Positions 1-41,741 of a stretch of DNA of 41,741 bases are shown here, piece after piece (within the stretch, counting starts at the first letter, position 1; every line of letters starts with the position of its first letter). The DNA is taken from IMG/VR virus record IMGVR_UViG_3300045988_117301; one strand, written 5' to 3'. A program made the translations under genes and the position numbers. Below the pieces are notes generated by a model. The model was not told the DNA's origin, searched no databases, and worked only from the letters and a program-made list of their open reading frames with translations. The DNA is from a virus. Taxonomy: Duplodnaviria > Heunggongvirae > Uroviricota > Caudoviricetes.

Positions 1-151
1 TGCGGGAAAGCAGACGCAAGAAATAGCGGCAATGTCTGTCCGTCCAGTCGAGCATAGGAGCAATGCTAAACCGAGAACTCCCGTAAGCGCCAGTTTTCTC
101 AGGCATCGCGCTGGTTTGATTAGTTTTCTGTGTTTCAGGATTATCGTGCAT
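1..151 (-). CDS. dusA: tRNA-dihydrouridine synthase A, 5' portion (continues beyond window start); N-terminus supplied by prophage DNA
   Basis: Minus-strand frame from ATG at 151-149 (internal ATG at 106-104) reads [50 protein letters not shown] and stays open to position 1; [14 protein letters not shown] is the conserved DusA N-terminal motif. Confidence 0.7.
44..105. repeat. attL: left copy of imperfect direct repeat, 8-bp identical core TCGAGCAT at 48-55
   Basis: About 79% identity to 41683-41741 over roughly 57 bp; core tcgagcat identical at both ends. Confidence 0.7.
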
Positions 152-184
152 TTTTGAACATTTCAGGCTATTTTTCTCGCGTTA

Positions 185-219
185 GGTTCCCGCACAGGTT
201 CCCACGATTTATGGGAACC
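185..219. promoter_or_regulatory. GGTTCCC repeat cluster upstream of int (two direct copies 185-191 and 197-203, one inverted 213-219); candidate integrase arm-type sites or int promoter elements
   Basis: Exact heptamer repeats seen directly; similar GGTTCCC/GGCTCCC pair at 41626-41643 on the other att arm. Confidence 0.35.
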
Positions 220-239
220 CGAAATAACGAGGTCGTGTA

Positions 240-1337
240 ATGGCGTACTATAACATAGAGAAACGACTAAAATCCGATGGCACACCACGCTATCGCTGTA
301 ATGTGATTATCAAAGAAAAAGGTGTTATCACTTACAGGGAAAGCAAAACATTCCCTAAACATGCCCATGCCAAAACATGGGGTACACAGAAAGTGATGGA
401 ATTAGATCTATATGGCATTCCATCATCAAATGCAGTTGACGGACTTACAGTCCGTGACTTACTACACAAATATTTAAATGACCCAAATGCCGGAGGTAAA
501 GCAGGTCGTACTAAAAGATATGTGCTGGAACTGCTTATGGATAGTGACATCTCCGCGATCAAACTATCCGAACTGACAGAAAATGACGTAATTGAACATT
601 GTAGGCTAAGAAACAACGCTGGTGCAGGTCCAGCAACAGTCAGCCACGATGTTAGTTATCTTGGCAGTGTTCTGGATGCGGCCAAACCTGTATACGGAAT
701 TAATTACACATCAAACCCGGCGAAAAGTGCTCGTCCATATCTACTTAAACTTGGTTTGATTGGTAAATCAAACCGTCGTAATCGTAGACCGGCATCTGAT
801 GAACTGGACATGCTCATTGAAGGTCTTCAACAACGATCTACACATAAATGCTCAAAAATTCCGTTCGTTGATATCCTCAAATTTTCTGTGTGGTCCTGTA
901 TGCGAATCGGAGAAGTATGCCGGTTACGATGGGAAGATCTCGACCAGGAACAAAAATCTATACTCGTAAGAGACAGGAAAGATCCACGCAAAAAGGAAGG
1001 CAACCACATGAAAGTAGCCTTGCTTGGGGAAGCCTGGGATATCGTCCAACGACAGCCCCAAAAATCGGAATTCATTTTTCCATATAACAGCACTTCTGTT
1101 ACTGCGGGATTTCAGAGGGTAAGAAGCAAATTAGGTATTAAAGATCTGCGATACCATGATTTGCGTAGAGAAGGGGCAAGTCGCTTATTTGAGGCTGGTT
1201 TTAGTATTGAGGAAGTCGCCCAAGTTACAGGGCATCGTTCATTAAACGTGCTATGGCAGGTATATACCGAACTGTATCCGAAATCTTTACATAATCGTTT
1301 TGAAGAGCTCCAAAAGAGCAGAAATAAGACCTCTTGA
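240..1337 (+). CDS. int: Tyrosine recombinase/integrase (dusA-targeting phage integrase)
   Basis: 365-aa ORF with ATG at 240 and a Shine-Dalgarno GAGG upstream; C-terminal region with R..HxxR..Y-type motifs (HDLRREGASR, LYPKSL); adjacent to attL. Confidence 0.9.
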   Translation: MAYYNIEKRLKSDGTPRYRCNVIIKEKGVITYRESKTFPKHAHAKTWGTQKVMELDLYGIPSSNAVDGLTVRDLLHKYLNDPNAGGKAGRTKRYVLELLMDSDISAIKLSELTENDVIEHCRLRNNAGAGPATVSHDVSYLGSVLDAAKPVYGINYTSNPAKSARPYLLKLGLIGKSNRRNRRPASDELDMLIEGLQQRSTHKCSKIPFVDILKFSVWSCMRIGEVCRLRWEDLDQEQKSILVRDRKDPRKKEGNHMKVALLGEAWDIVQRQPQKSEFIFPYNSTSVTAGFQRVRSKLGIKDLRYHDLRREGASRLFEAGFSIEEVAQVTGHRSLNVLWQVYTELYPKSLHNRFEELQKSRNKTS

Positions 1338-37329: not shown

Positions 37330-37740
37330 TCTCTCCAGACCTACAAACAAGGTACTAACAAAATTTGGTTGTAACACGGCGTATGGCACATGCGTCGTTA
37401 GCGGTCTGGGGACGTTAAAGGGGACAATCCACTCCTTGCTCGGGCAAACAAACCAGGTAGCCGGAATGTGCAAGTCAATGAGGATGCTGATAAGACGCCT
37501 AACCAGCGTGGCGATCCGGTTTGACGCCTGGGAAGAGACCAGGGTGCAACGATGAGGGCATTTATGGAACCGCGACAAAGTGTGGTGCCGTAACTGGCTA
37601 AGTGCTCTCAGCGTTGTGGTAATCCGCGAAATGGCGCGGCGGTAAGTATGGCGGGGTTACTCTTTCCCCGTTGAGGACACCGGATTGTCAGGTTGACCAT
37701 ACGCCTGAGTGACAACCCCACCACAACAGCCACTGCTTTG

Positions 37741-37788
37741 GCGGTACCAGTTTGTACACTTGCTTCCGGCTGGTACCGCTCTTTTTAC
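37741..37788 (+). terminator. Strong hairpin plus T-run in the early-left leader (tL-like terminator)
   Basis: Perfect 10-bp stem GCGGTACCAG/CTGGTACCGC with 19-nt loop, followed by TCTTTTTAC. Confidence 0.45.
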
Positions 37789-39698: not shown

Positions 39699-40270
39699 TG
39701 AACAACTTAATGATCGACCTTGAGACGATGGGGAAAAATAAGGATGCACCGATCGTTTCCATTGGCGCGGTGTTCTTCACTCCAGAAACCGGAGACATCG
39801 GACAAGAATTCTATACGGTTGTTAGCCTGGACAGTGCTATGAAGCTAGGAGCTACACCTGACGGCGATACCATCCTGTGGTGGTTGAAACAAAGCCCTGA
39901 AGCACGAGCTGCAATCTGTATTGATGATACTTTGTCGATCAGCGATGCTCTCTCAGAACTAAATCATTTCATTAACCGGCACGCAGACAATACGAAATAT
40001 TTAAAAGTCTGGGGTAACGGAGCCACCTTCGACAACGTAATTTTACGTGGAGCTTATGAGCGAGCAGGACAAATCTGCCCGTGGGCATACTGGAATGACC
40101 ACGATGTACGCACGATCGTTACGCTTGGGCGTTCCATCGGATTCGACCCCAAAATGGACATGCCTTTCGATGGCGAACGGCACAACGCCCTAGCTGATGC
40201 CCGTCATCAGGCAAAATATGTTTCCGCTATCTGGCAGAAATTAATTCCTGCCACCAGCACAGAATTATGA
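39698..40270 (+). CDS. DEDDh-family 3'-5' exonuclease (DnaQ-like)
   Basis: MNNLMIDLETMG... (Exo I motif DxE), later acidic/His motifs (HNALADARH); Shine-Dalgarno AAGAGGTGA; start ATG 39698. Confidence 0.8.
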   Translation: MNNLMIDLETMGKNKDAPIVSIGAVFFTPETGDIGQEFYTVVSLDSAMKLGATPDGDTILWWLKQSPEARAAICIDDTLSISDALSELNHFINRHADNTKYLKVWGNGATFDNVILRGAYERAGQICPWAYWNDHDVRTIVTLGRSIGFDPKMDMPFDGERHNALADARHQAKYVSAIWQKLIPATSTEL

Positions 40271-40306
40271 TTTTCCCGGGTGCAGCCGGTTTTGATGGAG
40301 AAAATT

Positions 40307-40588
40307 ATGAACACCTTGTTTTTACTGATGGCTGAATTCAATACCCCAAACATTGAACTCTCAGCAGTTAGCCAAAAGTACTTTGGTATGAGTCCAGCCA
40401 CGGCAGAAGCAAAAGCAAACGCTTGTAAGTTGCCCGTTCCAACATATCGCATCGGCACATCACAAAAAGCAAAACGTTGCATCAATATTCAGGATCTTGC
40501 GGAATACATAGACAAAAGGCGAGAAGAAGGACGTATCGAGTGGGAACAGGTCAGAACAGTCAAACAGAAGGGCAAAGAACATCACTAA
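40307..40588 (+). CDS. PrtN-family / excisionase-like small DNA-binding protein
   Basis: MNTLFLLMAEFNTPNIELSAVSQKYFGMSPATAEAKANACKLPVPTYRIG... resembles PrtN-family proteins as recalled; last gene of the early-left operon; Shine-Dalgarno GGAG. Confidence 0.5.
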   Translation: MNTLFLLMAEFNTPNIELSAVSQKYFGMSPATAEAKANACKLPVPTYRIGTSQKAKRCINIQDLAEYIDKRREEGRIEWEQVRTVKQKGKEHH

Positions 40589-40589
40589 A

Positions 40590-40618
40590 GAAAAAACCCG
40601 CCTGAAGGCGGGTTTTCA
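40590..40618. terminator. Bidirectional rho-independent terminator
   Basis: Stem AACCCGCC/GGCGGGTT with loop tgaa, flanked by an A-run upstream and a T-run downstream; between convergent genes. Confidence 0.7.
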
Positions 40619-40635
40619 AAAAGCACCAGCTATGA

Positions 40636-40809
40636 TCATGCTGCTTTGCGACGACGAAGCTTACCCTGCTGCTCTTTACCAGAGACAGTAGCGTGAGTGA
40701 ACGCATTAGGAGCAGCCTTCATCAGAACTTCAACAGCAGCACCCATACCTGCGAATGCTTTCATTGTGTCGAACTTAACCTGTGGCTTGGTTGCTTTTTG
40801 ATCTTTCAT
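40636..40809 (-). CDS. Hypothetical 57-aa basic protein (below the ORF-track size cutoff)
   Basis: ATG 40809 with Shine-Dalgarno GGGAG 6 nt upstream; translates MKDQKATKPQVKFDTMKAFAGMGAAVEVLMKAAPNAFTHATVSGKEQQGKLRRRKAA; ends at the bidirectional terminator. Confidence 0.45.
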   Translation of the reverse strand: MKDQKATKPQVKFDTMKAFAGMGAAVEVLMKAAPNAFTHATVSGKEQQGKLRRRKAA

Positions 40810-41005
40810 AGAAAACTCCCGAGACAGTAAAGGCGTCTCTAACCCTTTCTTTAAAGCTAGCTTGTTTCGCTAACTTATGCCAATCGATCATGTCGATTGG
40901 TGACATCGTTTCTTAGTAGTTTAAGCACAAAACGACTGCCATAGATGTACCTTTAAGGTAATCTGGACGGGTATCCTACAATTTGTAGACCCTTCTCGTC
41001 TATAC

Positions 41006-41539
41006 CTACTGAGCAAATTTAAGAAAGATATCCTGCAGCTCATCAATGACTGCCGACATCACATAACCGCACTGTTCCATGCGGAAACCAAAAGACTCGT
41101 AATACTGCACCAGTTCTGGTACTGGCTCTACAATGTGGACAACTTTACATTCAACAGCTTTACAAAATATAAAAGCACTCATAAGAGTGAGTAAAACCAT
41201 GCGCCCTTTCAATGGGTGAGATTCATCTTCTCTAGAAAACCTTTCGATCATATGGATACGAAAGATGTTTTCTTCAACCCCATAAACACAAATTGCTGCT
41301 CCTGATGGTATTCCCTGAACCCGACCTTGCTGAACAAGTTTTATGCAGAACTCATACTTTTCTCTGGAGTTGCCATAGGTACTTAACGCATAGTCCCATT
41401 CAAGCTCACCATAGCCACCACACAGAATCTTGTAATCATCATCACTGAGCGGACCAACAGCAAGAGGTAAGCCGACATGATCAATAATCAACTGGATATT
41501 GTTACGTACTGATTGACCTATCTCGTCCAGGGTAAGCAT
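41006..41539 (-). CDS. Hypothetical 177-aa protein, AT-rich cargo gene; possibly a divergent GNAT-like fold
   Basis: About 40% GC versus about 52% in phage core genes; C-terminal ...VHIVEPVPELVQYYESFGF resembles the GNAT motif B ending (Y..GF) but no clear acetyl-CoA Q/RxxGxG motif; Shine-Dalgarno GAGAGG. Confidence 0.55.
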   Translation of the reverse strand: MLTLDEIGQSVRNNIQLIIDHVGLPLAVGPLSDDDYKILCGGYGELEWDYALSTYGNSREKYEFCIKLVQQGRVQGIPSGAAICVYGVEENIFRIHMIERFSREDESHPLKGRMVLLTLMSAFIFCKAVECKVVHIVEPVPELVQYYESFGFRMEQCGYVMSAVIDELQDIFLKFAQ

Positions 41540-41667
41540 CATGGCCTCTCAAGCGGAACACTAAAAGTCGCATTATATCTCATTCTTAAGCCGCGTATGG
41601 ATTACACCTTGAAATGAAAACGCCGGGTTCCCAATAGGCTCCCGCAAAGTATATAACTACTTGTTTT

Positions 41668-41741
41668 TCAAAAACGGTACATCCTATCGAGCATTGGTGC
41701 AACGCTAAACCGACCACTCCAGTGAACGTCAGTTTTTTCAG
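41668..41741 (-). pseudogene. dusA: Displaced native 5' fragment of dusA (enters from beyond the window end, terminates in phage DNA)
   Basis: Minus strand reads ...EKTDVHWSGRFSVAPMLD then RMYRF and stop (TGA at 41670-41668); FSVAPMLD is the native DusA N-terminal motif, interrupted at the att core. Confidence 0.6.
41683..41741. repeat. attR: right copy of imperfect direct repeat, core TCGAGCAT at 41687-41694
   Basis: Aligns to 44-105 at about 79% identity; identical 8-bp core. Confidence 0.7.

Follow-up and report, generated by a model that had tools for sequence, protein, structure and literature searches.

The stretch of DNA analysed here (the window; 41,741 nucleotides) is almost certainly a complete lambdoid prophage of Escherichia coli, of the mEp460/PhiR40_1 type, that sits at codons 33–35 of dusA by way of site-specific recombination. 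The target, the tRNA-modification gene for tRNA dihydrouridine-20/20a synthase, stays whole because the prophage brings its own copy of the first 35 codons. Both the integration into dusA and the restoration of the gene are real, yet they were already described between 2015 and 2021, and the mechanism is not new; the prophage is a further instance of a well-documented strategy, in which a conserved gene is targeted and then repaired by the element's own gene end. The present analysis makes only a modest addition, namely repeats flanking the core that resemble integrase arm-binding sites and whose layout is conserved across related phages.

In whole-length comparison, PhiR40_1 covers 92–95% of the window at 98–99.4% identity, and mEp460 covers 79–86% at 97–98% identity. 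Both are essentially the same phage as the one in the window, with identical attP organisation, and differ from it in the tail-fibre and accessory regions; their records are phage genomes, whereas the window holds the integrated state together with both host junctions. The int–dusA junction was found in 741 of 5426 complete E. coli genomes, counting those with one continuous alignment spanning at least 80% of window positions 1–400. Because dusA is thus occupied next to such an integrase in about 14% of complete E. coli genomes, Stx-converting phages among them, the site is relevant to prophage typing.

Host junctions and the crossover segment

An earlier note on the window, made from the sequence alone, had correctly placed both prophage junctions and the crossover. 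The left end is, as it held, the N-terminus of DusA on the minus strand, positions 1–151 translating as a 50-residue DusA start; within it, positions 1–47 are host coding sequence for codons 36–50 of 345, identical to K-12 and continuing leftwards outside the window. At the right end, the divergent dusA copy (minus strand, 41668–41739) reads EKTDVHWSGRFSVAPMLD followed by RMYRF and a stop, with the predicted five extra codons and a TGA at 41670–41668. Positions 41695–41741 (minus strand) are the 5' remnant of the host gene, again identical to K-12 and continuing rightwards to the ATG and the native promoter; positions 41668–41686 (minus strand), translated as RMYRF and the TGA, are phage sequence identical to attP that closes the displaced fragment and includes a TCCTA arm (41682–41686). 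The DNA outside the window is dusA, and both sides match the K-12 neighbourhood: on the left lies the rest of an intact 345-codon dusA, whose 1038-bp coding sequence in the host locus spans the left junction, and then pspG–qorA–dnaB, and on the right lie the dusA 5' pseudogene, labelled in RefSeq as 'tRNA-dihydrouridine synthase, incomplete, missing C-terminus', and then yjbM/yjbL–zur–yjbJ–dinF, the same neighbours as in prophage-free K-12.

The two dusA copies form an imperfect direct repeat. The identity of about 79% over about 57 bp proposed earlier was reproduced as 45 of 57 positions when two mismatched bases on the left are included; positions 48–102 and 41687–41741 by themselves agree at 45 of 55 (82%), and the chance of a match of at least this quality anywhere in the window is about 6e-9. 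A repeat search returned this terminal pair as the longest direct repeat of the window (65 nt, 78%, spacing 41639). The homology is truncated by the end of the window, and the full run extends over 104 bp, of which 85 are identical (82%), to reach the dusA start codon.

To locate the exchange, we set four sequences against one another, namely the empty attB of K-12, attL, attR, and attP as carried by the free phages mEp460 and mEp460_4F5. Their alignment narrows the crossover down to the proposed 8-bp core, TCGAGCAT, at 48–55 in attL and 41687–41694 in attR: attL equals attB to the left of the core and attP to its right, and at all 19 diagnostic differences beyond the right edge of the core, attL has the phage variant and attR that of the host. 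Although TCGAGCAT is not the longest exact match of the repeat, since GCTAAACCGA (65–74 and 41704–41713) has 10 bp, it is the crossover segment. The empty-site comparison with K-12, set beforehand as a test on which the reading could fall, puts the repeat exactly at the insertion boundary. Joining the window ends rebuilds an attB that agrees with K-12 at every base around the junction, over an interval that starts 4 bases to the left of window position 1 and reaches 433 bases past it, and the attP predicted to carry a dusA 5' mimic is found in the genomes of mEp460_4F5 and mEp460, from which the rebuilt attP differs at 5 and 11 of 640 positions, respectively.

The reverse complement of the core, ATGCTCGA, covers DusA codons Met33–Leu34–Asp35, and in attP the core is flanked by the inverted repeats TCCTA and TAGGA. 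The overlap is likely the 7-bp TCGAGCA (48–54); a 7-base core has been reported for the Stx2 phage 1720a-02, the Int of which is 99.2% identical to that of the window (PMC6328086). In the proposed mechanism, attP comprises a 7–8-bp overlap (TCGAGCA/T) between short inverted repeats, a stretch of 96 bp on the int side that mimics the start of dusA in frame, clusters of candidate arm repeats on both sides, and int itself, which directly adjoins the mimic and runs in the opposite direction. The strand exchange would take place within the overlap, at predicted cleavage positions, and be carried out by a tyrosine recombinase from the dusA-associated family.

Two other routes by which such junctions could arise were weighed against integrase-mediated recombination. 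The stretch of homology to host dusA on the phage, with exact runs longer than the core such as the 10-bp GCTAAACCGA, might suggest entry by RecA-dependent homologous recombination between the phage fragment and the host gene, but about 100 bp at 82% identity is a poor substrate for RecA, and the exchange took place in none of the longest identical runs but at the very margin of the homology, within 8 bp that are flanked in attP by TCCTA and TAGGA. The identical junction moreover recurs in the 741 genomes and is the same in laboratory-made lysogens of C. rodentium (PMC6328086), and we consider the RecA route highly improbable. Direct repeats at both ends of an element are also a signature of transposition, yet a transposase-type target-site duplication is already refuted by the attP/attB comparison: the repeat is imperfect and about 104 bp long, one of its copies is pre-existing phage sequence in free virion genomes, and the terminal gene adjoining the junction encodes a tyrosine integrase, not a transposase. 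With chance similarity opposed by the probability given above, this last pair of explanations deserves practically no credence.

The phage-supplied dusA start and its predicted expression

The mimic (56–151, minus strand) supplies codons 1–32, fuses in frame to host dusA, and shows 1–3 point differences from the attP of the free phages. Compared with the native 5' end in E. coli, it has 82% identity and lacks indels and stops; at the protein level, 25 of 35 residues agree with native DusA, and the codon differences comprise 10 nonsynonymous and 6 synonymous ones. With the host gene body joined to the phage 5' end, the DusA frame has its full length of 345 codons and departs from the native protein at 10 of the first 35 residues, and the original 5' end, together with the native promoter, is stranded at the far junction, where it forms a stub of 40 codons. 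The mimic reading frame is conserved across related phages: six of them, from Yersinia, Morganella, Salinivibrio, Vibrio, and Pseudoalteromonas, carry beside int an ATG-initiated frame that ends in ...R(F/L)SVAPM and extends to L or LD where the record reaches, the N-terminal parts being divergent.

Because the native promoter lies 41.6 kb away, transcription of the restored dusA must begin in phage DNA. The promoters of both int and the restored gene must lie within or adjoining positions 152–239, the divergent intergenic region between dusA' and int, which is phage sequence in the att alignment and forms the int-proximal arm of attP. A strict sigma-70 scan of 1–1500 and 40200–41741, run with a terminator scan, returned no promoter on either strand in 152–239, the region from which the earlier note had the restored dusA driven, and a relaxed home-made scan gave weak candidates only, the best one for dusA having its -35 at 166–161 and its -10 at 145–140, the latter overlapping the annotated dusA start codon. 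By these scans, there is no clear promoter or Shine–Dalgarno sequence upstream of the chimeric start. For a related element, it has been established experimentally that a new promoter and a 35-residue N-terminus keep dusA of E. coli expressed (PMC8409611).

The scan results would accord with a mimic that serves as recombination-site sequence only, the chimeric dusA being silent or inactive and lysogeny effectively knocking out the gene. It also fits that dusA is dispensable, its loss giving no phenotype in A. baumannii (PMC4482086), and that expression dropped upon integration of the element IMEVchUSA3 (PMC8409611). However, the mimic continues for 96 bp beyond the core, free of indels and stops, its ATG coincides exactly in position with the native one, and this length counts against a role as site only because it far exceeds what core-type binding needs. 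An in-frame, ATG-initiated frame ending in ...SVAPM is likewise kept in the six divergent phages despite their differing N-termini, and a dusA'-lacZ fusion was still expressed after a related element had integrated in E. coli (PMC8409611). We regard a functional knockout as unlikely, and infer that the chimeric DusA is transcribed and active.

Integrase, probable excisionase and candidate arm-type sites

The gene at the left end of the element (int, 240–1337, plus strand) encodes a 365-residue tyrosine recombinase (PF00589, E = 7.5e-21) of the dusA-associated integrase family, in which R222, H306, R309, H332, and Y342, that is, the RHRH tetrad and the nucleophilic tyrosine, are invariant in a six-member alignment. 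It is 98.6–100% identical to the integrases of mEp460 (98.6%), PhiR40_1, phiSTEC1575-Stx2k, and 1720a-02, all sequenced as free or induced phages. The class of dusA-targeting integrases to which the earlier note referred does exist, and the mEp460 integrase is named as a member by Farrugia et al. 2015 (PMC4482086); the relatedness of the window Int to the family rests on this mEp460 protein, a BLASTP match in that study to the A. baumannii reference AGH34419. Further family traits are found in the window. The int gene is located at the element end beside the dusA 5' end, the dusA ATG (151–149, minus strand) and the int start (240, plus strand) being divergent and 88 bp apart, and semiconserved imperfect direct repeats (attL/attR) lie in the conserved dusA 5' region. 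The occupied dusA 5' end is element-derived, attL being attP right of the core, and the joined halves give K-12 dusA. The codon position of the insertion is the same as in the A. baumannii attL and attR in the supplement of PMC4482086.

Near the other end, 40280–40588 (plus strand) encodes a PrtN/RdfN-family protein, a predicted excisionase (PF11112, E = 4e-23; phrog_1300 'excisionase', E = 8e-40), which is likely the recombination directionality factor of the prophage, judging from these profile matches. It probably directs excision, which would regenerate wild-type dusA. RdfN is the directionality factor of dusA-specific elements, as shown for IMEVchUSA3 (PMC8409611), a PrtN/RdfN homologue occurs in 64% of dusA elements (Farrugia et al. 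2015, PMC4482086), and excised attP circles were detected by sequencing for phage 1720a-02 (PMC6328086).

Both arms of attP carry short repeats. The int-side arm has three copies of GGTTCCC (185–219), two direct (185–191 and 197–203) and one inverted (213–219), situated 20–55 bp upstream of int, and the other arm has a direct pair on the plus strand (41626–41643), GGTTCCC (41626–41632) and GGCTCCC (41637–41643), some 60 bp away from the core. The 41.7-kb window has four exact copies of GGTTCCC, every one of them in the att arms (chance about 1e-9), to which the five GG(T/C)TCCC copies are confined. The significance lies in this clustering only: window-wide, the motif is not enriched, either as GGTTCCC (4 copies against 5.1 expected) or as GGYTCCCRC with one mismatch allowed (36 against 33 expected). 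Two direct repeats 11–12 bp apart, of different sequence, are present in YeP1, Morganella IME1369_02, ACA1, SMHB1, and Vibrio PE001; a third, inverted copy recurs in YeP1 and IME1369_02 and, in degenerate form only, in ACA1, and YeP1 (AGCACCCC twice) and SMHB1 also have far-arm pairs, roughly as distant from the core as in the window. The A. baumannii elements have similar repeats. Spacing and position are kept across elements of E. coli, Vibrio, and Acinetobacter, and the sequence varies with the integrase. From this layout, integrases of the dusA family may use the GG(T/C)TCCC repeats as arm-type binding sites, in the manner of heterobivalent (lambda-type) integrases, for which such sites cluster on both attP arms and differ in sequence from the core-type ones. 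A literature search gave no account of arm sites in the dusA-associated family. Since the repeats occupy the 88-bp divergent region, occupancy by Int could couple autoregulation of int to expression of the restored dusA.

Integration may also swap promoters, in that a phage promoter would drive host dusA and the displaced native one would read into a cassette beside attR, composed of a GNAT-fold gene and a small partner ORF (41542–40636, minus strand); no terminator was predicted between the displaced promoter and the GNAT-fold gene. If so, the cassette would be a lysogen-specific accessory operon under a host promoter. The GNAT fold was assigned by structure prediction and Foldseek only, the ORF, at 41542–41006, having no match in Pfam, NCBIfam, or PADLOC. 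Its standing as a dusA-specific gene dependent on promoter capture is weakened because prophages of Pseudescherichia, Edwardsiella, and Shewanella that sit at places other than dusA have homologues accompanied by the same small partner and because the ORF has its own perfect -10. The joint reading, in which the repeats are arm-type Int sites and integration swaps the promoters, is accordingly offered as a tentative one, more doubtful than probable. The prophage sRNA-17 (PMC7719688), suspected in the 1.15-kb region beside attR, maps instead to about 37719–37779.

Relation to known dusA elements and other gene-restoring integrators

Phage 1720a-02 (Phi-stx2dact; Balasubramanian et al. 2019, PMC6328086), with its nearly identical Int, shares the core of the window, the C. 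rodentium attB being TCCAGTCGAGCATGGGAGC. It inserts 100 bp into dusA with experimentally verified junctions, an in-frame phage dusA', and int beside attL (PMC6328086), but has another backbone, Stx-converting and of 47 kb, alignable with only about 63% of the window's right part, and the host studied was C. rodentium instead of E. coli. The elements of A. baumannii D1279779 (RGP05) and P. protegens Pf-5 (PMC4482086) are inserted at the same codons (S-V/I-A-P-M-L/M-D-W-T), the A. baumannii attL, TCAGTAGCCCCTATGATGGATTGGAC, being comparable with the site in the window; as here, the element supplies a new 5' end and encodes a PrtN homologue, and wild-type dusA returns upon excision. In contrast, their integrases are only distantly related to the window Int, their att repeats measure 26–28 bp against the 104-bp mimic, and their cargo is different (a restriction-modification and metabolic island, and a P2-like phage). 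IMEVchUSA3 and other SGI1-like elements (Durand et al. 2021, PMC8409611) replace the first 35 residues of DusA in E. coli and bring a new promoter, and the RdfN of IMEVchUSA3, a PrtN homologue encoded across attP from int, is needed for excision. However, IMEVchUSA3 is a mobilisable island that relies on IncC plasmids and AcaCD, whereas the window holds a phage, and its N-terminus shares 61% identity with native DusA, compared with 71% for that of the window. The same strategy is followed by the SXT ICE at prfC, where an attP copy of the target-gene end leaves an intact gene after integration. In phages that use tRNA genes (P4, P22, and HP1), an attP copy of the target-gene end likewise regenerates the gene. 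The target genes and integrase families of SXT and of these phages differ from those of the window, and the tRNA integrators replace the 3' end of their target, not the 5' end.

Insertion site, terminal repeat and crossover

The left end of the window matches, at 100% identity, E. coli genomes where it adjoins an intact 1038-bp dusA followed by pspG, qorA, and dnaB, and beyond the right end lies a fragment annotated as 'tRNA-dihydrouridine synthase, incomplete', followed by yjbM/yjbL, zur, yjbJ, and dinF. Because these genes match the prophage-free K-12 order (dinF-yjbJ-zur-yjbL-yjbM-dusA-pspG-qorA-dnaB), the window represents an insertion inside dusA. The earlier note, which proposed a prophage in the 5' end of dusA supplying a replacement N-terminus, had named two observations that would speak against it, flanks other than dusA and a repeat lying off the insertion boundary; both flanks are dusA, and the empty K-12 site places the repeat at the boundary.

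On the minus strand, window 1–151 translates into a 50-residue DusA N-terminus, and the right end into ...EKTDVHWSGRFSVAPMLD followed by RMYRF and by a stop codon at 41670–41668. The 8-bp core TCGAGCAT occurs at both 48–55 and 41687–41694, and the segments 48–102 and 41687–41741 align without gaps (45/55 identical), forming the longest direct repeat found in a search of the whole window; a match this good would arise by chance somewhere in it with a probability of about 6e-9. The terminal repeat noted previously is confirmed in its two copies, their coordinates, and their identity (79%, that is, 45/57 once two mismatched extra bases are counted), with two refinements: the 10-bp GCTAAACCGA exceeds TCGAGCAT as an exact run, and the extent of about 57 bp holds within the window, whose end cuts off a similarity of 104 bp (85/104) that, with outside sequence, continues through the dusA start codon.

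We aligned the empty K-12 site (attB), the left and right junctions (attL and attR), and attP of the free phages mEp460 and mEp460_4F5. attL coincides with attB as far as ...CCAGTCGAGCAT and with attP from TCGAGCAT on, attR being the reciprocal, and right of the core attL carries the phage variant and attR the host variant at all diagnostic differences (19/19). Since attB and attP differ directly beside TCGAGCAT (AG versus TA on the left, T versus A on the right), strand exchange is confined to these 8 bp, as had been suggested. When 1–55 is joined to 41695–41741 with flanks, the product agrees with K-12 at every base between 4 bases left of position 1 and 433 beyond it, and when 41400–41694 is joined to 56–400, the resulting attP differs from mEp460_4F5 at 5/640 positions and from mEp460 at 11/640; the predicted attB, and the predicted attP carrying a dusA 5' mimic, are thus both recovered. 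The attP core is surrounded by inverted pentamers, TCCTA (41682–41686) and TAGGA (55–59), whose 7-bp spacer TCGAGCA fits a tyrosine-recombinase overlap region, the cleavage positions being inferred. Read as its reverse complement, ATG-CTC-GA, the core corresponds to codons Met33-Leu34-Asp35 within the conserved APMLDWT motif. Free mEp460_4F5 has TCAAGCAT in place of TCGAGCAT in its attP core (aligned to 41687–41694), a mismatch to attB within the overlap that can be expected to hinder tyrosine-recombinase integration.

The int–dusA junction, counted where one unbroken alignment spans 80% or more of window 1–400, is present in 741/5426 complete E. coli genomes. Its recurrence across hundreds of genomes, and also in lysogens made in the laboratory, together with an exchange at the extreme edge of the homology and between inverted repeats, makes it unlikely that RecA-mediated homologous recombination produced the integration. 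That the terminal repeat is a target-site duplication is excluded by the presence of one copy already in free phage DNA.

Integrase and the att arms

The integrase gene (240–1337) encodes a tyrosine recombinase (PF00589) in which R222, H306, R309, H332, and Y342 are invariant among six relatives. Int is 100% identical to that of PhiR40_1, PhiR47_1, and PhiR55_1, 99.2–99.7% to those of mEp460_4F5, phiSTEC1575-Stx2k, Lys8385Vzw, SKA5, and 1720a-02, and 98.6% to that of mEp460, and has relatives at 55–68% identity in Yersinia, Morganella, Salinivibrio, Vibrio, and Pseudoalteromonas phages. PhiR40_1 matches the whole window at 98–99.4% identity over 92–95% of bases, and the window is therefore of a known lambdoid siphophage type. 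About 12 Vibrio records of 14 kb, besides the similar Vibrio phage 10N.286.54.F4_PE001 (PE001) itself, have an Int 55% identical, the core TCGAGCAT, and a dusA mimic; these prophages with the dusA module at their ends are non-tailed and classified in Tectiliviricetes, so that the integration module is common to tailed and non-tailed virus realms.

A PrtN/RdfN-family gene (40280–40588; PF11112; phrog 'excisionase') lies at the prophage end opposite int, and across attP from int once the element is circular. Between this gene and the convergent small ORF of a GNAT-fold cassette, a strong GC-rich hairpin of 11 pairs with T-runs on both sides (40592–40617) is probably a bidirectional terminator. 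Beside int, a dinI-like gene (1399–1647) has a near-consensus promoter (TTGACA at 1334–1339) that two LexA boxes (CTGT-N8-ACAG; 1340–1355 and 1368–1383) overlap, and for this reason looks SOS-regulated. The stretch ~37719–37779 (minus strand), some 4 kb away from attR and without connection to the att site, matches exactly parts of sRNA-17, an ArcA-regulated small RNA of E. coli K1 RS218 located in an mEp460-like prophage (PMC7719688).

As an exact match, GGTTCCC occurs four times in the 41.7-kb window, each time in the att arms (185–191 and 197–203, direct; 213–219, inverted; 41626–41632), a clustering with a chance of about 1e-9, and GGCTCCC at 41637–41643 makes a fifth copy. Five other elements likewise have a direct-repeat pair 11–12 bp apart just upstream of int, with a different sequence in each: CAGCACCCC in YeP1, GGACACC in Morganella IME1369_02, AGTCACCC in ACA1, AGTCTCCC in SMHB1, and AGTACG in PE001. 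After the pair, YeP1 and Morganella IME1369_02 have a third copy in inverted orientation; ACA1 has only a degenerate one, and SMHB1 and PE001 showed none. On the other arm, the E. coli phage, YeP1, and SMHB1 have a repeat pair at a distance of ~60–66 bp from the core. Similar repeats, TGGTGTAA, are present in an A. baumannii sequence in the supplement of Farrugia et al. (PMC4482086). Conserved geometry with changing sequence is the pattern expected of arm-type Int sites, for which these repeats are candidates. A full-text literature search on dusA with arm-type sites returned none described for dusA-associated integrases, and the arm repeats are our addition to known dusA integration.

The restored dusA and its surroundings

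The mimic, the phage-supplied copy of the dusA 5' end (56–151, minus strand), has no indel or stop relative to native dusA and has its ATG at the same position. Of the 35 DusA residues replaced, 25 stay identical, the codon changes being 10 nonsynonymous and 6 synonymous; the β1 segment RFS(I/V)APMLD is kept. YeP1, Morganella IME1369_02, SMHB1, PE001, ACA1, and mEp460 each have an int-adjacent, ATG-initiated ORF reading towards the core and ending in ...R(F/L)SVAPM, on to L or LD where the record reaches, with otherwise divergent N-terminal parts. That an in-frame ORF persists well past the extent required of a core site suggests selection on the ORF itself. This conserved ORF, together with lacZ data on a related element (PMC8409611), disfavours the reading of the mimic as mere att sequence with dusA effectively knocked out.

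Because the native promoter is 41.6 kb away, transcription of the restored dusA must begin in phage DNA. The interpretation in the earlier note is supported overall, except for its placement of the promoter at 152–239, where a strict sigma-70 scan of both strands found none. Under relaxed criteria, the best candidate for dusA (minus strand; −35 at 166–161, −10 GATAAT at 145–140) overlaps the annotated start codon, and a weak one in the int direction (plus) has its −10, GATTAT, at 139–144, each being a consensus match only. These two weak candidate −10 elements overlap each other and both fall within the 15 codons annotated as an N-terminal extension of DusA, and the true start codon may accordingly be either Met1 or Met16; were the dusA candidate real, translation would start at Met16.

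Between the probable excisionase gene and attR lies a two-gene cassette (41006–41542 and 40636–40809, both minus). It reads in the same direction as the displaced host dusA promoter and its stub, directly downstream of both, and no terminator is predicted between the stub and the cassette. Its 178-residue protein, with no match in Pfam, NCBIfam, or PADLOC, is confidently predicted to adopt a GNAT acetyltransferase fold (pLDDT 94), and its Foldseek matches include GCN5, SpeG, and the GNAT toxins AtaT and TacT (TM 0.5–0.58). An ORF of 56–57 residues always comes after the GNAT-fold gene, and the pair also occurs in Pseudescherichia, Edwardsiella, and Shewanella prophages not at dusA. It is conceivable, if rather doubtful, that family-wide arm-type sites are coupled to the dusA'/int control region and/or that a promoter swap feeds the GNAT-fold cassette, which would be of modest interest.

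Comparison with dusA-associated integrases

The class of dusA-targeting integrases invoked in the earlier note does exist: dusA-associated integrases were defined by Farrugia et al. in 2015 by one insertion site in the dusA 5' end, semiconserved attL/attR repeats, an element-supplied new 5' end, and PCR-proven excision, with PrtN homologues in 64% of the elements, and mEp460 Int and several E. coli prophages are named there (PMC4482086). Every defining feature of the family that is testable here is present. Phage 1720a-02 (Balasubramanian et al. 2019), with an Int 99.2% identical to ours, integrates 100 bp into dusA with a phage dusA' in frame and a 7-base core common to attL, attR, attP, and attB, attP circles having been found by sequencing (PMC6328086). 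Durand et al. (2021) showed that RdfN is the directionality factor, and that a dusA-specific element, once integrated into E. coli, contributes a new promoter and a 35-residue N-terminus by which dusA expression is maintained at a reduced level (PMC8409611). Prophage insertion in dusA with restoration of the gene is thus already known.
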